Origin: Dehalococcoidia bacterium
GTDB taxonomy: Bacteria > Chloroflexota > Dehalococcoidia > GIF9 > AB-539-J10
DNA length: 61,097 nucleotides
Direction: 5' to 3'
Assembly (NCBI GenBank): GCA_030611085.1
Contig: JAUWQI010000005.1
Coordinates: 1 to 61,097 of the forward strand
Shown: piece by piece, positions 941-61,097 of the stretch
Position numbering within the stretch: the first letter of the stretch is position 1
Layout: the number at the start of each line of letters is the position of its first letter
The notes under the pieces: generated by a model
What the model was told of the DNA's origin: nothing
The model's input: the letters and a program-made list of their open reading frames with translations, nothing else
Database searches by the model: none
Position numbers and translations under genes: made by a program

Positions 941-2663
941 CTACTCCTATATTTAAAAAGGACGTTACTTCTCCCAAAGGCAGGGTATTTAATATATTCC
1001 GAGGCTCACACCAGGCTCGCCGAGCCACGCCAACTCCAAATCTCATAAAGCCCAGATGGGCGGTGCTGTGAGAATCAGTTTCGATAGCAAGCTTTACCCC
1101 CAGGTCTCTAGCACGGAAGGCGTGGATGTCGTTTAAATCAAGCCGACTGGGCTGAGCATTGATTTCTAAAACCTTATTATACTTAGCTGCTGCTAGGAGA
1201 ATGGCTTCCATATCTATGGCTACAGGCTCACGCTCACCTAAAAGGCGGCAAGTGGGGTGAGCTATTATATCAACATCAGGATTCTCTATAGCGCTCAACA
1301 CCCTTTTGGTCATTTTCTCCTCGCTTTGATGCATGGCCGAATGCACGGCGGCAATGACTATATCCAGGTCAGATAGGATTTCCTGGGGCAAATCCAAGCT
1401 GCCATCAGCTCGAATATCAACCTCAATACCTGTAAATACATGAATGCCACCTATATGCTCATTAAGAGCCCTAATCTCAGCAATCTGCTCCCTTAGCCTC
1501 TCCACATCAAGCCCATGAGCGATACCTCGTCCACCAGAATGGTCGGTGATTGCTATATACTGGTAGCCTAAATCCCTGGCAGCTAGAGCCATCTCCTCGA
1601 TGGAGTTGTGTCCATCACTCCAATCTGTGTGCATATGGAGGTCTCCTTTTATATCAGCTAATCCTACAAGCCTGGGCAAAGTTCCTTCTTCAGCTCTTTC
1701 CACCTCACCCTGGGCTTCCCTGAGCTCTGGTGGAATATATTGAAGTCCCAACCGATGGTAAAATTCTTCTTCAACGGCAAATTTCTCTAGCTTCTCCGTA
1801 GCTATAGTGGTTATTCCATATTCGCTCAATTTCAACCCCTGCCTACGCCCTCTCTCCCTCAGGGAGATATTATGCTGCTTGCTCCCGGTAAAATACTGCA
1901 GCAAAGAGCCAAAAGAATCGTGCTCTACTATGCGTAAATCAACTTGCAATCCTCCAGTCACAATGCCACTCGCCTTAGTCGGCCCTTGCGCTAACATCTG
2001 CCCTACACGAGGCAAAGCAACAAAGGCATCTATAACCTCTTTAGGATTATCGGCAGTGCCCATAAGGTCAATATCGCCCAGTGTTTCCCTGAAGCGACGC
2101 AAGCTCCCAGCATAAGTCATATTCCTCACTCCGGGAACAGAGCGAAGGGAACCGAGTATTTCCTCCACAATGGGCAAAGCTTCCCCAATAGGGATACGCT
2201 GGTCTTTGCGGCGCAAAGCTTGAATCTGCTGCAGGATATTATCAGCAGTCTTATCGCCAAGGCGGGAAAGCTTAGCTACCTGCCCATCGTGGATTGCTTG
2301 CTCTAAGGCATCCACTGAGCTTATTCCCAATTCGCCAGAAAGCCTATTAGCCGTCTTAGGACCGATTCCAGGTATTGCCAAAAGATTTGTTATCCCTTCA
2401 GGGAATTCAGCCTTCAGGTTCTCATAATATCCCAGCTTACCAGTAGTCACCAACTCGGTAGTCTTTTTAGCTATTGCCTCACCCACGCCGGGGATATTCC
2501 TCAAATCCTCCCCCTCATCGAGCATAATCTTTATTTCCTTGGGATAATGCTCAATAGCCCGAACCACCTTCTGGTAGGCACGAATCTTAAAGACATTCTC
2601 CCCTTTAAGCTCCAAAAGGTCGGCAATGTCTTGAAATACCTTGGCAATAGCTATATTCTTCAT
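933..2663 (-). CDS. polX: DNA polymerase X family protein with C-terminal PHP phosphoesterase domain
   Basis: 576 aa. Helix-hairpin-helix IPGIGPKTANRL, pol-beta nucleotidyltransferase motif GSLRRFRETLGDIDLM, and PHP motif GDLHMHTDWSDGH. Confidence 0.9.
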   Translation of the reverse strand: MKNIAIAKVFQDIADLLELKGENVFKIRAYQKVVRAIEHYPKEIKIMLDEGEDLRNIPGVGEAIAKKTTELVTTGKLGYYENLKAEFPEGITNLLAIPGIGPKTANRLSGELGISSVDALEQAIHDGQVAKLSRLGDKTADNILQQIQALRRKDQRIPIGEALPIVEEILGSLRSVPGVRNMTYAGSLRRFRETLGDIDLMGTADNPKEVIDAFVALPRVGQMLAQGPTKASGIVTGGLQVDLRIVEHDSFGSLLQYFTGSKQHNISLRERGRRQGLKLSEYGITTIATEKLEKFAVEEEFYHRLGLQYIPPELREAQGEVERAEEGTLPRLVGLADIKGDLHMHTDWSDGHNSIEEMALAARDLGYQYIAITDHSGGRGIAHGLDVERLREQIAEIRALNEHIGGIHVFTGIEVDIRADGSLDLPQEILSDLDIVIAAVHSAMHQSEEKMTKRVLSAIENPDVDIIAHPTCRLLGEREPVAIDMEAILLAAAKYNKVLEINAQPSRLDLNDIHAFRARDLGVKLAIETDSHSTAHLGFMRFGVGVARRAWCEPRNILNTLPLGEVTSFLNIGVDE

Positions 2664-8670: not shown

Positions 8671-9609
8671 TTACTCGAACATAGCCCCCACAGATAACCC
8701 GGTATGAATGCGGTGGATGGCTTCGCCAAGAAGTGAAGCTATGGATAAAACAGTAATTTTGTCCAATTTTTTGCTGCCATTAACAGGTATCGTATCGATA
8801 ACCACGACTTCTTTCACTGGACTGGATGTTATCCTCTGGATAGCTGGACCTGAGAAAACAGGATGAGTACAACAAGCATAAACCTCAGTAGCGCCATGCT
8901 CTATCAAGGTGTTTACCACACCATTCAAAGAGCCAGCGGTATCGATTTCGTCATCAACAGTCAGTGCACACATCCCCTGAACTTCACCAATGATATTGAG
9001 GGTTTCAGTAGCATCAATATTTCCCAATCGTCTCTTTTCAATAATAGCCAAAGAGGCTCCCAGGTTAGCAGCTACATCACGGGCTCGCTTGGAAATGCCA
9101 ATATCAGTAGCTACCACCACTAAATTATCCAGAGCTTTTTCCTTAAAGTATTGGCAAAGAATAGACAAGGCAGTGAGTTCATCAACGGGTATATTGAAAA
9201 AGCCCTGAATTTGAGCAGCATGAAGGTCCACAGTGAGCAGCCTATTAGCCCCAGCGGTAGTAATCAAGTCAGCTATCAAGCGAGCGGTGATAGGCACTCG
9301 CGGCTGGTCTTTCTTATCAGTGCGACCATAGCCATAATAAGGAACAACAGCGGTGATTCGCCCCGCTGAAGCTCGCTTAAAAGCATCAATCATGATGAGA
9401 AGTTCAATCAAGCTTTTGTTAACTGGAGAGCAAATGGGCTGAATAACAAAAATATCTCGTTCGCGAACATTTTCCAGGATGCGGACAAAGATATTCTCAT
9501 TACTAAATTCAAAGATCTCGGCTCCGCCCAATGGTATACCCAAATAATCGCATACAGACTTCGCTAAAGCGGGATGGGCATTGCCAGTAAACACTCTTAA
9601 TTCATCCAT
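8671..9609 (-). CDS. prs: Ribose-phosphate pyrophosphokinase
   Basis: 312 aa, with [16 protein letters not shown] and PRPP loop [11 protein letters not shown]. Confidence 0.92.
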
Positions 9610-13275: not shown

Positions 13276-14331
13276 ATGATTGTAGTTATGAAAGTCGGCT
13301 ACAGCCGAGATGAAATTGACGGAGTTATTAAACGAATCGAAGGGTCAGGACTAAAGTCACATGTGTCACAAGGCATTGGCCATACTATTATTGGTGTGCT
13401 GGGGCAAACCTTTCCTGAGCTTCACGACACCCTGGAATTGCTCCCCGGAGTAGAACAGGTTGTACCTATTAGCAAGCCCTATAAACTTGCCAGTCGAGAG
13501 TTCCACCCTCAAGACACCATAGTTAAGGTAAATGGCGTTACCATCGGTGGCGATGAAATAGTTATCATGGCCGGACCTTGTGCAGTAGAAAGCGAGGACC
13601 AACTCTTGGCCACAGCTCAAGCAGTCAAAGCATCTGGTGCCAATGTGTTACGAGGCGGTGCCTTCAAACCACGCACTTCACCCTACCAATTCCGTGGATT
13701 GGGAGAAAGAGGACTTAGAATACTAGCAGAGGTGGGAAAGGAAACTGGAATGCCCACCATCACAGAGGTGATGGCGCCAAATGATGTTGAGTTGGTAGCT
13801 GAATATGCCGACATACTCCAGATTGGAGCTCGAAACATGCAGAACTTTATTTTGCTTGATGAGGTGGGAAAATTAAAAAAACCAGTGCTGCTTAAACGAG
13901 GTTTGTCATCCACTATTCAAGAATGGTTATTGGCCGCTGAGTATATTCTGGCTCAGGGGAATGAGCAACTTGTCCTCTGTGAACGAGGTATCAGAACCTT
14001 CGAAACCTATACTCGTAATACTATGGACATTAGTGCTATCCCGGCCATCAAAAAAGTTAGCCATTTGCCCATTATCGCTGACCCCAGTCACGCCACAGGT
14101 AAATGGTATTTGGTAGCTCCTTTGGCACTGGCTGCAGTAGCTGCTGGAGCCAATGGATTGATAATAGAAGTCCACCCCAATCCCGACCAAGCACTTGCTG
14201 ATGGTCCTCAATCACTCACCTTTGATAACTTCCGACGCCTTATGGCTCAATTAACGCCTGTAGCTCAAGCTATGAATAAAAAATTAGCTGTCTCGGGTAC
14301 AAAGGCGGGGATAAACCCCGCCACTACGTAG
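13276..14331 (+). CDS. aroF: 3-deoxy-7-phosphoheptulonate (DAHP) synthase, type I-beta with N-terminal regulatory domain
   Basis: 351 aa, with [20 protein letters not shown] and [11 protein letters not shown]. The last ~10 codons (KAGINPATT) lie in a repeat hairpin. Confidence 0.88.
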
Positions 14332-53167: not shown

Positions 53168-53329
53168 GTACAATGGCAAAGTATGAAACTAGTTCAGATA
53201 GGCGGTGGACACTTCAGGAAGCAGCGGCAAAGCATTTTGAAGAGGCTCTAAACCCACAAGCACTGAAGATATTAGTTAACCCTGAAGGGGCATGCTCAGA
53301 AGTTTGCTAGCAAAATGTTTGCAAAAGAA

Positions 53330-53354
53330 ACAACCTCTCGAAGAGAGAGGTTGT
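53330..53354 (+). terminator. Strong hairpin downstream of acpS; possible terminator or island boundary
   Basis: acaacctctc-gaaga-gagaggttgt, a 10-bp perfect stem with no U-tract. Confidence 0.35.
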
Positions 53355-53419
53355 CGGGCCAGGGCTACTCACCCTAGCGTTGTTATTCATATGATAATAA
53401 GACTATCAATATTTGTCAA

Positions 53420-54052
53420 ATGAACTCGGCGGACACCTATACGGAACGTGTAATCGCCTATGTCGATGGCTTTAATCTTTATTTTGGACTAAAATCCAAA
53501 GGTTGGCATCGATACTATTGATTGAATATCCAACTGCTGGCTCAGAACCTATTAAAACCAAACCAAAGTTTGCTTCTCACAAAGTATTTCACCGCGAGGA
53601 TCTCAAGTCCGCCGGATAAACAGAGGCGACAATCAACTTTTATTGAGGCTCTTGAAACTCTCAATGATTTTCAAATTTTCTATGGCAAGTATCAACTCAA
53701 TCCTCGCCAGTGTTCTCACTGTGGCTTTCAAGATGAAGTGCCTCATGAGAAAATGACAGATGTTAACATTGCCGTCGAAATTCTCAAAGATGCCTATCAA
53801 GATAAATTCGATGTTGCTTTACTTATCTCGGCGGATAGTGATTTAGTCCCCTCAATCAAAACAGTGAGAGAGTTATTTCCCAACAAACGAGTAGTCATTG
53901 CATCTCCTCCAGCTCGCTACTCCGTTGACTTAGTAAATTCCGCTAATAGGAGCTTCGTTATCAGCCGCAGGAATATTGCCAAAAGTCTTCTCCCTGAAGA
54001 GATAAAGAAAAAAGATGGCTATATTCTACGGTGCCCACTTTCATGGAGATAA
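53420..54052 (+). pseudogene. NYN-domain (LabA-like) ribonuclease-family gene interrupted by an in-frame TGA at 53519-53521
   Basis: MNSADTYTERVIAYVDGFNLYFGLKSKGWHRYY-TGA-LNIQLLAQNLL...YFTARI...EKMTDVNIA...SADSDLVP. The stop sits where this family normally has Trp (TGG). Confidence 0.72.
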
Positions 54053-54212: not shown

Positions 54213-56780
54213 TTAGCTTGCCGCTAGAGCATGCCGATAAATTTGCTCAAAGGTGGTGGCTGTTGTAGAGCGAAACACCTCCTCAGTAACTTTTATGTAA
54301 CGCCAAAGAATGCTTGTCAGAGCGCCGGCATCTTGACACCACTTCTTAGCTCGGGCGTCCTTCTGAGCTACATCAATATCCTCTCGTCCCTTAGTTTCCA
54401 CAATGAACATTTCCCCGGCAATGCTTCTTACTATGAAATCAGGCCAATAGGAATGCCAGCCTCCTCGTGTGTCAAGATACTCGATGGAGAAAGGCGTGTT
54501 TTGGGTTAATTTAGCGAAGGCGTCAATATCTTGTGCTCCTTCGAGAAAAGAGGCAAACTCTGCCTCAAAGCGGTTATCACAGGCTACCAGGTTAAAGACT
54601 GTCTTTCGCGCCCGCGTGACTTCCCTTGACCAAAGGAAGGCGGGAGTTGTCTCACCAACTTTCAATGGTGGTGCTGTCACTCTCACCGGCTGGGGCTTGA
54701 TAACCAAGTTATTGATTGCTTGGCTGAATATATCGAGGAGAACTTGGCGGACATCAGACTCGTTCAAACGCCGCAGCACTCGTCTCTGGCTTAAGTCAAC
54801 TTCCTTACCAAATATCACCCTCTCAAGATATGCCTGGATTTTGGGGGCAAGCTCGGCAAACTTACCTCCCGTTCTGAGGTGAACCTGCTCCAGGATCTGA
54901 TTAGTAAAGTATGCTACCACTGCTCCCGGTTCCTCAGGAACAGGCAAATCCCAGTATCGGTCTATGACCTTCTCCGCGGTCAAGGCGTCAAAACCCTCAT
55001 AATGGGTGATGTCGGTTGGCAGCTCATCTCCCAAGGGAACTGTCCTCCGAGGAAGCTTGAAAGGATCAATATCGGCAAGGGAAACAGACAACCGACTTAA
55101 AGCTGGAGAAAGCTGAGGAATGGAGAGGTCATATTCGCTCTTTTCAGGATCAGGGAGAATAGTGCGGATATCAACGTGGTCTTTGCCAATATGCGTTTCG
55201 CCAAAGGTAACCCCTTCATTTTCTAGCTCTCGGACAACATCCTCAAATGCCTTATTGCCAATGACATCTACGTTCTCGATATACCCCGAAGAGGGACCCT
55301 CCATAAGCCTGAGGCCCCGACCAATGGTTTGTTCGGGCAGGATGTCCGCCTTGGCGCTGTAGGGTCGAAGGCCAACGATAACGGTAACATTCTTCACATC
55401 CCAACCCTCTCGCAACATCAACACACTGACGATGGCAGAATAAGGATTGTCACGACTATCCACCTCACGGGCAGCCTGGCGCAACTGGTTAAGCAGCTTT
55501 TTATTAGTCGTAGTCTCGATAATTTCACCCTTGGCATTGGTGTGGATTTCCAACACCTTACCACTCAGGTCGGGGAGGGTTTCCAGATATTCAGCAATCT
55601 GGTGAGCAGCCGTGGTATTCTCGCCCATGACAAACAACACTGGCTTTCGCCTACTGTCTTTAAGAGAATCCTGGTATTCCTTCCAACGAGCTATCCCAGC
55701 GTCAATCCAAGGGCGATATCGCACATCAGCTTTATCGGAGGCTACTTCCTGCCCCTTTTCTATCCTCCCAATAATGGGGCGCTTTACGATGTCGGCCTCA
55801 ATAGCCTCAGCCACAGGATAGTCAACTATAGTCCAGGGGAAGAGAACGCCATTCTCATCCCTCGGAGTAGCAGAGAAGTCAAGTTGTGCTGCCAAACCAG
55901 CCTTTCCTCTGCCCTTAAGCTCCCCATCCAAACGGTCTATGATTTGATACCACACCAAGTCCTCACCATGAACATGGTGGCGGACATGATGCCCCTCATC
56001 ATTGAGCACCATCAAGTCGAGGTGCTTGATGATGCGGTCGATAAGTTCCTCACTGCTTACCTCAATTTTCCTCTTCGGGCTAGTGCCGACAATCGCCTTC
56101 ACCGGGTTGATTTCCTCCTGTTTCTCTCGTTGATAGAGACGCTGAATATTAGTCAGATAGAGCGTCCCCGCAGTAGTAGCAGCGACAGCCTCATCCCGCA
56201 AGATAACCTGCATATCCCACTCGGATAGCCACTCTGGTGGTATAAGAGGGTCATCGCGGAATATCTTGCCGTTCTCAAAGTCCCGTTTCAACCGCTCGAA
56301 GACGATGACATTAGGGGCAATAAGGAGAAAGTTTTTCGCCAGCGGTGAGTTTGCCTCCTTTATGGCGTGAAAGTAAGACCAGACTATCGCCAGGCTCATC
56401 ACCTTTGTTTTACCCGAACCAGTAGCCATTTTAAAGGTGTAGCGGGGCCAGCGGTCAACACGAGGGTCAACAGCAATTGGCTTATCGGGAGCAGCGAAGT
56501 CCTGCGCTAGTTTATAGAGGTTTCGTGCTTGAACAACTTCATAGCAGTAGATAAGAGTCTCAATAGCCTCCCTCTGGCAGAAGTAGTAACTGAAGGGCTT
56601 GCTGTCAGGCGATTTATGGTCTTCAAAAAACCAGTAGGTTAAGAGCCTTCTGGTGGTATTGGAGATGCCAGGATAATCTTGGTTTCGCCAATCAGTTATC
56701 GCCTCACGCAGCTTAAGCACCAGAGAGACTTGACTCTCCTGCCGACTTGTAGGTATGGCATAAGCATTGAGCAGTTTCAT
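54213..56780 (-). CDS. res: Type III restriction enzyme Res subunit (SF2 helicase + C-terminal PD-(D/E)xK nuclease)
   Basis: 855 aa. Walker A is KMATGSGKTKV, motif II is LNDEGHHV, and the C-terminal nuclease motif is YWPDFIV...FIVETKG. Confidence 0.85.
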   Translation of the reverse strand: MKLLNAYAIPTSRQESQVSLVLKLREAITDWRNQDYPGISNTTRRLLTYWFFEDHKSPDSKPFSYYFCQREAIETLIYCYEVVQARNLYKLAQDFAAPDKPIAVDPRVDRWPRYTFKMATGSGKTKVMSLAIVWSYFHAIKEANSPLAKNFLLIAPNVIVFERLKRDFENGKIFRDDPLIPPEWLSEWDMQVILRDEAVAATTAGTLYLTNIQRLYQREKQEEINPVKAIVGTSPKRKIEVSSEELIDRIIKHLDLMVLNDEGHHVRHHVHGEDLVWYQIIDRLDGELKGRGKAGLAAQLDFSATPRDENGVLFPWTIVDYPVAEAIEADIVKRPIIGRIEKGQEVASDKADVRYRPWIDAGIARWKEYQDSLKDSRRKPVLFVMGENTTAAHQIAEYLETLPDLSGKVLEIHTNAKGEIIETTTNKKLLNQLRQAAREVDSRDNPYSAIVSVLMLREGWDVKNVTVIVGLRPYSAKADILPEQTIGRGLRLMEGPSSGYIENVDVIGNKAFEDVVRELENEGVTFGETHIGKDHVDIRTILPDPEKSEYDLSIPQLSPALSRLSVSLADIDPFKLPRRTVPLGDELPTDITHYEGFDALTAEKVIDRYWDLPVPEEPGAVVAYFTNQILEQVHLRTGGKFAELAPKIQAYLERVIFGKEVDLSQRRVLRRLNESDVRQVLLDIFSQAINNLVIKPQPVRVTAPPLKVGETTPAFLWSREVTRARKTVFNLVACDNRFEAEFASFLEGAQDIDAFAKLTQNTPFSIEYLDTRGGWHSYWPDFIVRSIAGEMFIVETKGREDIDVAQKDARAKKWCQDAGALTSILWRYIKVTEEVFRSTTATTFEQIYRHALAAS

Positions 56781-56880
56781 AGCACTCCCCCAACAAGCTT
56801 GGTTACCAATATGTTACAAAATTTGACAAATGTCACAATAAATGTTATATAATAAGTAATTCGAGTCATCGAAGGTGGAT

Positions 56881-56929
56881 AACCCGTAAGGGTTAGCGTG
56901 CAAATGTCGGGGCTTCCCCGACTTTTGCA
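56881..56929 (-). terminator. Two consecutive hairpins immediately after the DUF3800 gene stop
   Basis: aaccc-gtaa-gggtt (56881-56894) and gcaaatgtcggg-gcttc-cccgacttttgc (56900-56928, one mismatch). No U-tract. Confidence 0.35.
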
Positions 56930-56930
56930 T

Positions 56931-57692
56931 TTAATCGAAAAGTTTTTGGCCATACAGATTATATTTACCTCGAAACATCTTTGCTAACCGCGTTCCAAAT
57001 GATGGTGGTGATGGAGGTATCCTGCCCTGTGAGCTCAAGATGTAAAGCTTTGACGGGTGAGCTAGCAAATCAGCTAATTGAAGCCCAGCGATATTCTGGC
57101 TTTTATATTTTACCTTGAGTTCTTTGCTAGAAAGGATCTTTTGGAACTCCTGCGTTGGAATATAATAAGTGCCGTGCTCCCAGACATATTGGTAGGCTTC
57201 TTTCAATGCTAGATCTTCCTTTCCTCCTCTGCCCTCCGCTAAAACATCTCCCTTTGCATGGTTGTATCTGAGATAACCACGGTAACGCTCCAATAAGAAA
57301 GCTAAACATAAGTGGTATGGATGGATTGCTGCATCGCCATAGCGGTCCCTATGCGCTTTTTTATCGATGACCGCAGTAAATAACTCGAATTGAGAGGTTC
57401 GCATGAACTCCATGAAATCCTTTTCCCAAGCGGCATTGCAGTCAGTGTTATCTAGCACACCGAAGGCATGGCGGCGGTTAATAATGTCTTCCCGATGTAG
57501 TATGACAGGTTCATCAGGATTATGAGGAAAATGTGATTGTTTTAAAGCTTCCAGTTGCGGCTGAAATTTAAGGCGATAGTAATCAGACTCGATAGCAATG
57601 CCAGTCAACCCAAGATAGCGACGATTAATGTCCTCTAAGTTCTTATAGGTATGGTCGCCAGACTCATCAATATACAGCCGGTAACGCTTCAT
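56931..57692 (-). CDS. DUF3800-like protein
   Basis: 253 aa. N-terminal YRLYIDESGDH and C-terminal GLQLADLLAHP, as I recall for DUF3800. It starts 18 nt after the mod stop, with AAGAAGGA as RBS. Confidence 0.55.
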   Translation of the reverse strand: MKRYRLYIDESGDHTYKNLEDINRRYLGLTGIAIESDYYRLKFQPQLEALKQSHFPHNPDEPVILHREDIINRRHAFGVLDNTDCNAAWEKDFMEFMRTSQFELFTAVIDKKAHRDRYGDAAIHPYHLCLAFLLERYRGYLRYNHAKGDVLAEGRGGKEDLALKEAYQYVWEHGTYYIPTQEFQKILSSKELKVKYKSQNIAGLQLADLLAHPSKLYILSSQGRIPPSPPSFGTRLAKMFRGKYNLYGQKLFD

Positions 57693-57710
57693 TGTCCTTC
57701 TTTTTGAGCT

Positions 57711-59633
57711 TCACCCAATTACAATCTCCACTACTTTTGTGATGTCGTTGCCAAAGATGTCCACTACCTTGACCAGCACCTTGTAGGAGCCTGGGTTTTG
57801 GTAAGTATGTGGGTCGCTCTCAGTCTTCAGGCTAGGGTGCCTCCGAGTGCGGTATGATTGCCACTGATTGTGGAAGGTATCTTCCTTAAAGTCCCAGTCC
57901 ACCGCCCAGTAGTCAATCCAGTCCGACCATTTTTTAACCTTACCCTTGAGGTCATCGGGGACAAGCTCTGGATTGGGGATAAAGAAGTTCCTGAGCCGAA
58001 CCTGGGCTGTTCTGCCCTCTTTAACTATCTCGGTCTCCAGGTGAGCCAGCTCATAGAAGTGGACATCCCCCGCCTCCACCGCCCTTCTATCCATCACCTC
58101 ACGGGGAATCTGTAAAAGCCGCAAATCAACGCCTTCCCTTCTGGCATCTGATTCATAGACATCGTGGAGCCCCATCTCCCATTCCCAGCCCAGCACATCC
58201 AGAGCGTTGAATCTGTTAGCTGAGCACTCTTTCAAGGCATCAGCAATCTCGGAGTGGGTAACCGGGGCATCGGAAGCTCCCACATGAACCATCCTTCCCC
58301 CTTTCCTGCCGTGGAGGTGAGAAAACTGGTTGACCACCGGCTGGGCGCGGTAAAGCTCAACGATAAAGGCTAAATACTCAAAGACTGCCTTCCTATCATC
58401 CTTTTCGCCGCCGTTTATCACATTCACCTGCCAGTAACGGCGCTCATATTTGCCAAGATTCAGGATTTCAAAGGGCTTGCAATCGGGAATATCTAGCAGG
58501 CGCTTCCTGGTAGTATGGATAGCAAACCTCCCTAAATCACAGCCAATCCAGCGGCGCGGTTTGTCTTTATAATAAATTGAGCGGTTTCCTTCTTTTTTTA
58601 CCCTTAGACCCTCTGCTGCAGCCAAAGTAGCTCCACTACCCATGAAAAAATCTGCTACCAAATCTCCTTCATTGGTTGATGCATCTACGATCCGTCCAAC
58701 AAGCTCAACAGGCTTTTGGGTATCATAACCAGTTTGTTCTTGTGAATGTTCGACCACAAAGGGTATCTCCCATACATCGTGCATTTGAACACCCTTAGTA
58801 GGTTCACTGGTGCGTTGAGTTATCATTCTTCCGCTTTCATCTAAAACATTTATGCGCCTCGTATCTCCGTGTACCGCTTGAGTAGAACTAGCCAATGATT
58901 GGAATAATTGATTAAACTTATAGTTTTGAGTTTTTGAATAGAACAAAATCACATCATGCATCCTTTGAAAATTATTGGATGCCGCGGTCCATCGCTTATA
59001 CCACCAGACAATCTCATTTCTAAAATTATCTCTCCCAAAAATCTCGTCCATTAACAGCTTCACATAGTGCCCCACATGCCAATCAAGATGGACATAGATA
59101 GAGCCATTATCCGCTAAGAGGTCTCGCATCAGCACCAATCGCTCATACATCATCTGAAGGTAGGAATCGGTGCTCCTGCCCCAGGTATCGTTATAGGCTT
59201 TCTGCTCAATAATGGAGGGCTGCTTTGCCACCTCCTCATCCCCCACCTTTACCCTAAAGCTGAAATCATCGCCGGTATCAAAGGGCGGGTCAATATAGAT
59301 GAGGTTGATTTTGCCTTTCATCGGCTTCAAGCCAACGGTGGGGTCGCCCTCAATGAGGGATGCCAGCACATACTTATTATCGCCCCAGACGAGTTTGTTG
59401 CGCCACGAGGGTCGCTCCACCTCGCCCTCAAAGAGGGGCAAGGGAGGCAATCCAGCGAGGAGAGGTTCTCTTTCGCGAGTAGCCCGGGATTGATTGATGG
59501 TCTCAATTACCTGGAAAGGCAAGGCAATTCGCTCTATCGGTCGGAGGTTACCTGCATCATCGTATTTGCCCTCCCAGACAAGCTCAGTCCTTCTGGCGTT
59601 AGCTCTCAGCTTTTGGTTTGGAAGTTCTGCCAT
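57711..59633 (-). CDS. mod: Type III-like DNA methyltransferase Mod (beta class, N6-adenine type) with PKD-like C-terminal domain
   Basis: 640 aa. Motif IV is LIYIDPPFDTGDDF, followed about 230 aa later by motif I DFFMGSGATLAAAEG. The C-terminus is VDWDFKED...HTYQNPGSYKVLVKVVDIFGND. Confidence 0.85.
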   Translation of the reverse strand: MAELPNQKLRANARRTELVWEGKYDDAGNLRPIERIALPFQVIETINQSRATREREPLLAGLPPLPLFEGEVERPSWRNKLVWGDNKYVLASLIEGDPTVGLKPMKGKINLIYIDPPFDTGDDFSFRVKVGDEEVAKQPSIIEQKAYNDTWGRSTDSYLQMMYERLVLMRDLLADNGSIYVHLDWHVGHYVKLLMDEIFGRDNFRNEIVWWYKRWTAASNNFQRMHDVILFYSKTQNYKFNQLFQSLASSTQAVHGDTRRINVLDESGRMITQRTSEPTKGVQMHDVWEIPFVVEHSQEQTGYDTQKPVELVGRIVDASTNEGDLVADFFMGSGATLAAAEGLRVKKEGNRSIYYKDKPRRWIGCDLGRFAIHTTRKRLLDIPDCKPFEILNLGKYERRYWQVNVINGGEKDDRKAVFEYLAFIVELYRAQPVVNQFSHLHGRKGGRMVHVGASDAPVTHSEIADALKECSANRFNALDVLGWEWEMGLHDVYESDARREGVDLRLLQIPREVMDRRAVEAGDVHFYELAHLETEIVKEGRTAQVRLRNFFIPNPELVPDDLKGKVKKWSDWIDYWAVDWDFKEDTFHNQWQSYRTRRHPSLKTESDPHTYQNPGSYKVLVKVVDIFGNDITKVVEIVIG

Positions 59634-59951: not shown

Positions 59952-60215
59952 TTACTTCCTGCGAGGCAGGAAAAGGGAGACGATGTATAGGATAGCTCCA
60001 AGTGAGAAGATTACAACACCCTCTAACATGAATTTAGAGCTGGCTACTAGGGCCATTCCTGCACACATAGCTCCAAAGCCTACACCGCCAATCTGCTGGT
60101 ATGAAATAGTCTTCCTAAGGCGCGTAACTGACTGGTGGATCTCCATAACCTTCTCCTTAGTTTCTGTAAGCTCACTCTGGATCACTTCTAGCTGGCTCTT
60201 TTCAGATTCATCCAT
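59952..60215 (-). CDS. Small membrane protein (N-terminal charged helix + two TM helices)
   Basis: MDESEKSQLEVIQSELTETKEKVMEIHQ... followed by GGVGFGAMCAGMALVASS and GVVIFSLGAILYIVSLFL. The ATG at 60215 has GGAGGTGA 8 nt upstream. Confidence 0.45.
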   Translation of the reverse strand: MDESEKSQLEVIQSELTETKEKVMEIHQSVTRLRKTISYQQIGGVGFGAMCAGMALVASSKFMLEGVVIFSLGAILYIVSLFLPRRK

Positions 60216-60243
60216 AGCCTCACCTCCTACATACCACATGATA

Positions 60244-60465
60244 CTATTTTTGCTCACCAAATAAAAATAGCTGTGGCAAAGAAACTTCTAGAGCTTCTGC
60301 TATTGCTGCAATATTCTTCAGCGCTGGATTACGTTCTCCCCTTTCAATGCTACCGAGGTATGTGCGATGCACGCCAGCCTTGAACGCCAGTTCCTCTTGG
60401 GATAAACCCCTCGCTAGTCGTAACTCTCGAACTGTTTGGCCAAATTGCTTCTGTATCATACTCAT
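60244..60465 (-). CDS. XRE-family helix-turn-helix transcriptional regulator
   Basis: 73 aa, with VRELRLARGLSQEELAFKAGVHRTYLGSIERGERNPALKNIAAIAEAL. Confidence 0.82.
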   Translation of the reverse strand: MSMIQKQFGQTVRELRLARGLSQEELAFKAGVHRTYLGSIERGERNPALKNIAAIAEALEVSLPQLFLFGEQK

Positions 60466-60535
60466 TTAATGTGCTTGCTAAAAGGGATAGCGCATTGTTC
60501 AGTTAAAAATCCGACAGTCCATATAAAATATGGAT

Positions 60536-61097
60536 ATGTTAAATGAGACACTCGTCACTTTATGCGGGGAACTATATGAACAAGGATTACCCAAGTCACA
60601 CATTGCCGAGAAGTTAGGAAAGAACCGGGAAACAATTCATATCTGGATTAGAGAGATAGAACAATACGGACTCATTGGGTTTCTCGACAGATACCGGCAG
60701 GCGAAGAAAGGCGAGAGAGCGAAAAGGAAGGCTAACCCGATAGTCAAAAGATGGATTTGGGAAATACGTGAAAGGGAATATGGTTGTTGCGGACAAAAGA
60801 TTCAGTATTTCCTTAACTTAGAGCATAACATTCACCTCTCTGTCCCCAAAATCAACGAGATACTAGCCGAGAAGTATGTTATCCATCCTAAGTGGCAGAA
60901 AAACAAGGTAAGGGGTGCCGTACCAAAGGCATCAATGCCGAGAGAAGTGATACAGAAGGATACCATCGACTTTGGCGAGCTCTATGCCTTTACTGCGATA
61001 GATATTTTTACCAGAGAAGCCGATATCCTCATTGCTACTGAGTTGACGGCTGATTTTGGATGTCAGTTCTTATACCAAAGTATGAGACGGCGGTTCG
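60536..61097 (+). mobile_element. 5' part of a DDE/integrase-type transposase gene (IS481/IS3-like), truncated by the window end
   Basis: My translation gives MLNETLVTLCGELYEQGLPKSHIAEKLGKNRETIHIWIREIEQYGLIGFLDRYRQ... (HTH), then ...VIQKDTIDFGELYAFTAIDIFTREADIL (start of the catalytic core). The palindrome tccatat-aaa-atatgga (60518-60534) abuts the ATG. Confidence 0.7.

Follow-up and report, generated by a model that had tools for sequence, protein, structure and literature searches.

The DNA analysed here comprises positions 1 to 61,097 of contig JAUWQI010000005.1 from the Dehalococcoidia bacterium assembly GCA_030611085.1, and this whole stretch of 61,097 nucleotides is referred to below as the window. 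It contains a restriction-modification (R-M) operon in which a gene of the DUF3800 family stands between the modification and restriction genes. According to the ORF list of the window, three intact open reading frames (ORFs) lie on the minus strand at this locus, namely mod (57711-59633, 640 aa), the DUF3800 gene (56931-57692, 253 aa) and res (54213-56780, 855 aa). Between the DUF3800 gene and res, the plus strand carries a predicted gene for a structured small RNA (sRNA) of approximately 70 nt (56857-56930) together with its promoter (56823-56853). The DUF3800 gene and the sRNA gene are called the cassette in the following, and the comparison of loci described below indicates that they form a unit of their own, which restriction operons have taken up repeatedly.

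The mod-res operon is intact and type III-like. In the translation of Mod, the motif IYIDPPFDTG precedes DFFMGSGATL, which is the order of a beta-class N6-adenine DNA methyltransferase, and the protein matches PF01555 at 7e-44 in the Pfam scan and the PADLOC model MTase_III PDLC03633 at 9.5e-126 over its full length. Res is a type III-like restriction subunit consisting of an SF2 helicase and a C-terminal PD-(D/E)xK-like nuclease; its translation contains FKMATGSGKTKV, LNDEGHHV and YWPDFIV...IVETKG, and it matches PF04851 at 3.2e-14 and PADLOC REase_III at 7.9e-18. For the nuclease domain, the Pfam match to RE_endonuc scored 20.6 bits against a cut-off of 23.4 and a TnsA-like match was also weak, and the domain was assigned on the basis of the PD...ETK motif and of homologues annotated with PF19778. 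Against the NCBIfam equivalog model NF046055 (BPTD_3080), Res scored 293 bits, where the cut-off is 800, and was aligned over residues 12-339 only; judged by this profile, it is a relative and not a member of the BPTD_3080 family, for which the literature search found no paper. The first-pass annotation, made from the letters and their translations, had named a type III-like mod/res pair, and all the motifs that it quoted are present in the translations, with Pfam and PADLOC in agreement. Mod and res share a strand but stand 930 nt apart owing to the cassette, while in relatives they abut or overlap, as had been expected from the usual adjacency of the two genes.

The ATG of the DUF3800 gene follows the stop codon of mod after 18 nt (AGCTCAAAAAGAAGGACA), within which an AAGGA ribosome-binding site is found; both the gap and this site had been reported correctly, and the identity of the DUF3800-like gene was confirmed by its match to PF12686 (2.6e-12, 48.1 bits relative to a gathering cut-off of 21). 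Being co-oriented with mod, the gene is probably co-transcribed with it. The distance from the DUF3800 stop codon to the ATG of res is exactly 150 nt and contains hairpins. The earlier reading of this interval as two hairpins and a 150-nt AT-rich spacer was accurate in the length and the hairpins, but the supposed spacer is the plus-strand sRNA gene.

The DUF3800 protein carries YIDESGDH and GLQLADLL, and in 33 homologues no variation was seen at D9, E10, D149, Q205 and D208 and almost none at D110. The conserved acidic D-E-D-D set (D9, E10, D110 and D149) is compatible with an RNase H fold. Structure prediction and a search by fold, which the first-pass annotation had proposed, gave a confident AlphaFold2 model of mixed helix and strand (pLDDT of 94.8 and pTM of 0.91), whose first match in the PDB by Foldseek was the RNase HII of M. 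jannaschii (1EKE), followed by RNase HI. These matches were weak, with an E-value of 2e-3 and TM scores of 0.42-0.46, whereas a phage DUF3800 protein matched the model at a TM score of 0.84. By sequence profile, no relative of solved structure was found in the PDB, and no membrane family was matched in the Pfam scan. The protein is thus treated here as a predicted RNase H-like nuclease. That DUF3800 lacks an assigned function, as the first-pass annotation had it, no longer fully holds, because an RNase H2-like fold and a role as the effector of type VII retrons have been published (PMC7736814), the family has been described as an accessory protein of Cas12a2/a3 and type VI-F effectors (PMC10910872, PMC12669027, 10.64898/2026.01.16.699850), and 11 non-coding RNA (ncRNA) motifs have been tied to it with their role undescribed (PMC5737381).

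When the window was aligned with four homologous loci in unrelated contexts, the nucleotide conservation of the 3' flank of DUF3800 exceeded that of the coding sequence, and in the same comparison the 5' flank showed no conservation. On the strand opposite DUF3800, the conserved flank begins with a promoter, read from the sequence, at a position that is kept in 64 loci. In the window, the −35 element TTGACA (56823-56828) is followed either by a 19-nt spacer and the −10 element TATAAT (56848-56853) or by a 17-nt spacer and TATATA (56846-56851), and the promoter scores 12/12. Across the loci it takes the form TTGACA-N16-19-TATAAT; a score of at least 10/12 was reached by 35 of the 64 loci but by only 2.6% of shuffles, and in 56 of the 64 the distance from the end of the −10 element to the sequence AGGUGGA is 19-24 nt.

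From its 5' end to its 3' end, the sRNA consists of UAAU, hairpin P3, AGGUGGA, hairpin P2 with a GNRA-type loop, GCGUG and, in the terminator, the GC-rich hairpin P1 with a U-run behind it. The RNA ends directly at the stop codon of DUF3800, so that the two genes are arranged convergently, in antisense. The terminator scan placed a plus-strand terminator at 56906-56922, followed by TTTT, and the 74-nt transcript has a minimum free energy of −33.4 kcal/mol with a z-score of −4.4. In the alignment (A4) of 63 distinct sequences, 99.1% of the P2 and P3 cells form standard pairs, while only 30-56% of the cells pair in slid controls. Changes on both sides of a pair were counted in 127 cells compared to 35 ± 5 in shuffles, and none of the 500 shuffles reached 127. 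RNAalifold independently recovered P1-P3, with compensatory changes in 18 of 20 pairs.

The pairing tables, counted by hand, show approximately 28 G-U cells relative to approximately 3 A-C cells on the sRNA strand. Because G-U pairs would be mismatches on the other strand, and because the promoter and the U-run terminator have the same direction, the plus strand is read as the transcribed strand. The covariation, the covariance model given below, the promoter and the terminator show, as far as sequence can, that the sRNA is a structured, transcribed plus-strand gene with a near-consensus sigma-70 promoter and a Rho-independent terminator. The hairpins were also considered as the 3' untranslated region or terminator of the DUF3800 mRNA, and this was ruled out, since the wobble pairs, the consensus promoter and the U-run fit the opposite strand.

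A covariance model, R1, was built from the sRNA alignment. In the window it gave a single match (56849-56948, plus strand) with 79.3 bits and an E-value of 3.9e-32. In 800 kb of loci of the Res family, the sole strong match was in L168, which is the only locus there with the DUF3800 clade of the window, and R1 matches nearly all of the remaining DUF3800 loci. The window region (E up to 10), the window as a whole (gathering score) and 11 related loci (E up to 1) gave no match to any Rfam 15 family, and no relevant match was found in the locus L099, described below, or in 12 viral loci; Rfam 15 holds DUF3800-I, DUF3800-IX and related families, and the negative comes without a positive control that these models fire. 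Only chance matches appeared, such as BSnc120 with 22.8 bits relative to a threshold of 114. By these scans the sRNA was assigned to no known RNA family, and it appears to be a further class of DUF3800-associated RNA that is set apart by its lack of an Rfam match.

Three other identities were considered for the sRNA. A guide RNA was ruled out, as there is no variable single-stranded segment and UAAU, AGGUGGA and GCGUG are invariant across phyla. For a small ORF, AGGUGGA resembles a Shine-Dalgarno sequence, but no suitably spaced start codon comes after it, and the segment behind it shows the covariation of a helix. Pairing with the DUF3800 coding region was also rejected, because the lone 12-nt match has the same sense on both RNAs and is not complementary.

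The distribution of the pair was determined in 80 genome loci gathered with a DUF3800 profile search. Nearly every one of the 80 copies has the sRNA element directly 3' of the gene, and the pair spans more than 15 phyla of bacteria and archaea, with loci in Chloroflexota, Planctomycetota, Acidobacteriota, Verrucomicrobiota, Bacillota, Patescibacteria, Methanosaeta and Hydrothermarchaeota among others. An R-M neighbour is absent in approximately 90% of these loci, and the 119 ORFs next to 62 cassettes represent 133 Pfam families. The closest stand-alone relatives (L001 and L007, 75-76% identity) lie between methionine-salvage genes; the nearest relatives on long contigs are placed at the mtnA/phosphorylase site (75% and 56%), among luciferase-like genes (67%) and beside an integrase (60%). 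Since most loci have no adjoining R-M genes, the comparison of loci shows the DUF3800-sRNA pair to be an autonomous unit and not a third R-M subunit.

In metagenome-assembled genomes (MAGs) of Dehalococcoidales (L001, L002, L007 and L006), the cassette occupies one site between mtnA (IF-2B family) and a PNP_UDP_1 phosphorylase gene, with a protein identity of 56-75%. This site lies near genes of the S-adenosylmethionine cycle, and it looks like a case of long vertical retention in a housekeeping operon. Relatives of DUF3800 at approximately 30% identity are found on prophages and temperate phages. The phage carriers are KY707339.1 (Pseudomonas phage JBD68), MK291442.1 and OQ240256.1, together with IMG/VR viral contigs (L173-L184). 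On five of these contigs (L178-L182), weak R1 matches lie just 3' of DUF3800 on the opposite strand, which suggests the same geometry of gene and sRNA.

Such scattering across contexts and phyla is what would be expected if the cassette were a mobile element, in which DUF3800, having the RNase H fold shared with DDE transposases, acted as a transposase or homing nuclease and the 3' element as its recognition end. The cassette is bounded near the start of the ORF and near the promoter of the sRNA, one copy stands beside an integrase and distant relatives reside on temperate phages. However, a search around the cassette found neither terminal inverted repeats nor target-site duplications, only short chance repeats. 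The conserved element is present at one end only and is a complete unit from promoter to terminator with G-U covariation of the RNA type, R1 finds one sRNA copy in the window, and the position between mtnA and the phosphorylase gene, kept among Dehalococcoidales, suggests vertical inheritance. A mobile element of this kind is therefore considered quite improbable.

One Dehalococcoidia genome (L080) contains several copies of these components. An orphan sRNA copy (1035-1136, plus strand) lies between hisB and an MFS transporter gene, two tandem sRNA copies (8733-8853 and 8897-8999, both on the minus strand) follow a DUF3800 gene, and a second, divergent DUF3800 gene (13528-14133) lies 5 kb away. 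A duplicated P2 hairpin was found in the related Dehalococcoidia loci L051, L059 and L082. The orphan sRNA has no DUF3800 gene beside it and therefore suggests action in trans.

This orphan bears on the alternative that the sRNA acts in cis, as an antisense RNA or insulator. Here, pairing with mod-DUF3800 transcripts that read through, or collision of promoters, would tune DUF3800 and res, for example by delaying restriction relative to methylation, and DUF3800 would be an RNA-processing helper. The arrangement is convergent, and read-through transcripts would carry the full complement of the sRNA. In the sense of DUF3800, the U-run after the terminator hairpin is poor in the window, L015 and L168, so that read-through is plausible, and a weak promoter-like site directed towards res (56836-56808) overlaps the sRNA promoter. 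Against these points stand the action in trans suggested by the orphan and the fact that the same sRNA, with invariant AGGUGGA and GCGUG, accompanies DUF3800 whatever lies downstream, including divergently oriented genes (L004 and L005). Regulation in cis is regarded as improbable, if slightly less so than the mobile element.

The co-oriented order mod-DUF3800-sRNA-res was also found in L015, L018, L085, L168-170 and L185-187. In L185 and L186, Res is 98% identical to that of the window and the spacer is identical, and in L187 DUF3800 is 91% identical. In L168-170, which were seen on 13 contigs, Res is 59% identical to that of the window. L015 is a MAG of Gammaproteobacteria and L018 a Hydrothermarchaeota archaeon. 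In the neighbor-joining tree, every copy that is embedded in an R-M system is paired with a stand-alone sister (the window and L187 with L007, L168 with L006, L018 with L019, and L008 with L037), which implies several independent captures or losses. The cassettes of L022 and L008 abut type IIG enzymes, and that of L025 lies between an HKD-SNF2 helicase and a IIG-like methylase. These gene orders show capture by type III-like operons in at least five lineages, always in co-orientation, and capture by type IIG systems and by the HKD-SNF2 and methylase system as well. Genes that are nested, co-oriented and recurrent, as embedded defence genes are, were found in the window, L015, L018, L085, L099, L168-170, L185-187 and L025. 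In the survey of DUF3800 neighbourhoods that had been suggested earlier, an association with R-M genes is thus seen as a recurrent order in these lineages, but not in the great majority of the 80 loci.

In the metagenome locus L099, a very distant DUF3800 gene (909-1791, approximately 17% identity, Pfam 7.8e-9) lies between mod and res. It is followed by a convergent unit made up of a TTGACA-16-TACAAT promoter, an RNA containing GAAGGUGAAAG and a terminator, which R1 does not detect. This RNA may be yet another class with the same geometry.

The first-pass annotation had proposed a three-component system with DUF3800 as an additional effector, sensor or regulator, which is weighed here as an obligatory part of the Mod/Res complex. 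The position inside the operon, 18 nt after mod, and the recurrence of the same order in other lineages speak for it. However, the DUF3800 clade of the window and its sRNA were found in 0 of the 80 metagenome loci with Res relatives at 40-55% identity, among which only L099 carries any DUF3800, and the two Res relatives at 62% are free of an insert, with mod and res overlapping. In most loci the DUF3800 gene and its sRNA persist without R-M genes. The divergence is also mismatched in L015, where Mod and Res are only 27-29% identical to those of the window and DUF3800 is 52% identical. A dedicated third R-M component is contradicted by these results, and an obligatory partnership with Mod and Res is the least probable of the explanations weighed here, with very little chance of being correct.

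The junction between mod and res accepts other genes as well. In about a quarter of the Res-family loci (approximately 18 of approximately 75), mod and res are set apart by co-oriented genes that together take up 0.6-4 kb. By Pfam, this cargo includes OLD-family and ABC ATPases (AAA_15, AAA_21, TOPRIM), a BrxC/D-like ATPase, HD with HD_assoc_2, Schlafen AlbA_2, IrrE/M78 with a helix-turn-helix (HTH) domain, an SDH-type ClpP-like protease, PDDEXK_3, DUF1828, an extra methylase and DUF3800. Examples among L087-L166 are L096, L100, L102, L112, L118, L124, L130, L146, L147 and L157, and inserted ORFs with no Pfam match include those at 5106-5873 in L112, 557-1339 in L134 and 4353-5090 in L143. Such embedding of defence genes has been described for Hma, BREX, DISARM and type I systems (Payne et al. 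2024, 10.1101/2024.01.29.577857). Judged by the annotated cargo, the mod-res junction of the type III-like Res family is a hotspot for defence-type genes that follows the embedding pattern.

A junction of this kind could also be a genomic sink, as was raised by Payne et al. themselves (10.1101/2024.01.29.577857). The cassette would then be a neutral hitch-hiker, a selfish or unrelated pair in a tolerant position, with no antiviral role and no cooperation with restriction. Most copies lie outside defence loci, the junction accepts many unrelated genes and close relatives of Res work without an insert, all of which agree with a sink. It is less easily explained by a sink that the same junction was entered in at least five independent lineages, always in co-orientation, and that the cassette adjoins type IIG and HKD-SNF2/methylase systems too. 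Furthermore, the other cargo of the junction is overwhelmingly of defence type and the literature ties DUF3800 to retrons and CRISPR effectors. Neutral hitch-hiking is accordingly held to be unlikely, although it is a stronger alternative than regulation in cis, a mobile element or a three-component enzyme.

The reading that we favour, with a probability of about 0.5, is that the cassette is an embedded toxin-antitoxin-like or abortive-infection module, made up of an RNase H-like nuclease and a dedicated sRNA, which would provide a second line of defence. In this mechanism, the DUF3800 nuclease would be the effector, and the sRNA, abundantly transcribed, would bind DUF3800 and restrain it, or would be processed by it. 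The polarity might also be reversed, with a harmful sRNA held down by the nuclease. Inside an R-M operon, the cassette would not be a subunit of the restriction enzyme and would serve both as the second defence line and as an addiction element that stabilises the operon. The role in second-line defence and addiction is proposed by analogy with PrrC, which is nested in EcoprrI, and with further embedded defence genes. The toxin-antitoxin or abortive-infection character is suggested by the combination of a nuclease with a strongly promoted structured RNA, by the wide horizontal spread, by the presence on prophages, where weak R1 matches stand in the expected place, and by the orphan sRNA of L080.

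Several points weigh against this module. We infer toxicity, binding of the RNA to the protein and defence at this locus from the genes. Approximately 90% of the genome loci have no recognised R-M genes next to them and many are placed among housekeeping genes, and the enrichment in defence islands is modest, as judged without a matched background. The match to the RNase H fold is weak (E of approximately 2e-3, TM of 0.42-0.46), and there is no PADLOC or NCBIfam model for the DUF3800 protein. A single-copy convergent RNA, instead of tandem repeats, together with a soluble protein of 253 aa fits no defined type of toxin-antitoxin system. In addition, a strain-specific DUF3800 gene of Legionella scored as essential in Tn-seq, alongside antitoxin genes (10.1101/2020.10.01.323287). 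The essentiality of this gene argues against DUF3800 as the toxic partner, at least in that clade, so that the pair may have either polarity.

A broader proposal, which we put forward tentatively and with a lower expectation than the embedded module, is that DUF3800 and the sRNA represent a very widespread and so far unrecognised two-component class of RNA-protein immunity or addiction systems, present in more than 15 phyla of bacteria and archaea and on prophages. In this class, the sRNA would gate the nuclease or be gated by it, and R-M operons would recruit the pair as a backup. Since 2017, many different structured RNAs have been recognised as companions of DUF3800 genes, and no function was offered for them; if the broader proposal is true, it would give a function to these long-unexplained RNA motifs. 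If the nuclease is gated by RNA, the pair would be a new toxin-antitoxin or abortive-infection architecture, and a compact RNA-binding nuclease might serve as a tool.

Earlier publications already cover embedded defence genes, the RNase H-like character of DUF3800 and the connection of this family with ncRNAs. New are the sRNA class, defined by promoter, strand and geometry, the strict pairing of this RNA with a large DUF3800 clade that crosses phyla, the finding that type III-like and other restriction operons have captured the pair repeatedly, and the recognition of the mod-res junction as a cargo hotspot. The results extend guilt by embedding to type III-like systems and give the pair a concrete defence context.

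The surroundings of the operon in the window agree with the island contents listed in the first-pass annotation, since a TGA-broken NYN gene, an XRE HTH gene and a transposase-like HTH ORF are all present. Next to res and outside the cassette, a broken HEC-09-type NYN RNase gene (53421-54052, plus strand; PADLOC HEC-09 at 7.7e-68) contains a single in-frame TGA after codon 33. In L185, where the island is nearly identical, the orthologous gene is intact and reads TGG (Trp) at this position. A second candidate sRNA unit (53325-53419, minus strand) lies divergently to the NYN gene and directly adjoins the start codon of that gene. It has a TTGACA-17-TATCAT promoter scoring 11/12, and its transcript of approximately 60 nt contains a hairpin as well as a strong terminator (−30.8 kcal/mol, z-score of −6.5).

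An XRE-family HTH gene (60244-60465, minus strand, 73 aa) overlaps an ORF of 102 aa with hydrophobic stretches, which has only a weak ThrE match (0.0062). The two span 59952-60465, approximately 320 nt upstream of mod on the same strand. The XRE gene could be a controller of the R-M operon resembling a C protein, or part of a separate two-gene pair. An ORF leaving the end of the window (60530-61097, plus strand) has an HTH_23 N-terminus and a sequence typical of an insertion sequence (IS) transposase, which supports the view that a small mobile island, adjacent to hypD, hypE and acpS, contains the R-M locus.

Among known systems, EcoP15I and EcoP1I resemble the host operon in having a beta-class Mod, a Res with an SF2 helicase and a PD-(D/E)xK nuclease as predicted here, and the order mod then res. 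The Res of the window is distant from these enzymes (PRK15483 at 1.7e-4; BPTD_3080 in part), and its gene is separated from mod by the cassette instead of abutting it.

The RNA motifs DUF3800-I to -XI (Weinberg et al. 2017, PMC5737381; Rfam RF02969, RF02968 and others) are likewise structured ncRNAs beside DUF3800, which often end in a Rho-independent terminator and sometimes lie on the opposite strand. The RNA of the window differs from them in having no Rfam 15 match, and the present analysis defines the promoter of this RNA, its strand and the fixed tail-to-tail geometry. The same protein family occurs in type VII retrons, where a reverse transcriptase (RT) and DUF3800 are fused or separate (Mestre et al. 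2020, PMC7736814), and in the TPR-DUF3800 proteins of Cas12a2/a3 and VI-F, all of which are defence systems built around a structured ncRNA. By contrast, the locus of the window has no RT, msr/msd, CRISPR array or TPR, and its RNA is a simple sRNA ending in a terminator; the scanned ORFs of the island contained no RT family, and Rfam returned no retron family.

Type III toxin-antitoxin systems (ToxIN, CptIN and TenpIN) share with the pair, as predicted here, a nuclease with a dedicated, abundantly expressed structured RNA, horizontal spread and a link to defence. Their antitoxin consists of tandem repeats upstream on the same strand and their toxin has the ToxN/AbiQ fold, whereas the window has a single convergent RNA copy and an RNase H-like protein; the pair falls outside this type, and only the logic may be shared. 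In the convergent antisense class of type I toxin-antitoxin systems, a small hydrophobic peptide is combined with an antisense RNA that overlaps the toxin mRNA. The protein of the window has 253 aa and the overlap is limited to the shared terminator region, so that the pair does not belong to this type either.

The embedding itself has its classic case in PrrC, an anticodon nuclease inside the type I system EcoprrI (10.1101/2024.01.29.577857). As in that system, a gene of a predicted nuclease is nested, in co-orientation, between the modification and restriction genes. As in the guilt-by-embedding study of Payne et al., the arrangement recurs in independent lineages and other defence-type cargo is found at the same junction. 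That study covered Hma, BREX, DISARM and type I systems, while the host in the window is a type III-like mod/res pair, and the cargo, in contrast to PrrC, is DUF3800 with an sRNA gene of its own and without a PADLOC model. The constant sRNA partner suggests that the R-M proteins do not silence DUF3800 in the way that EcoprrI silences PrrC.

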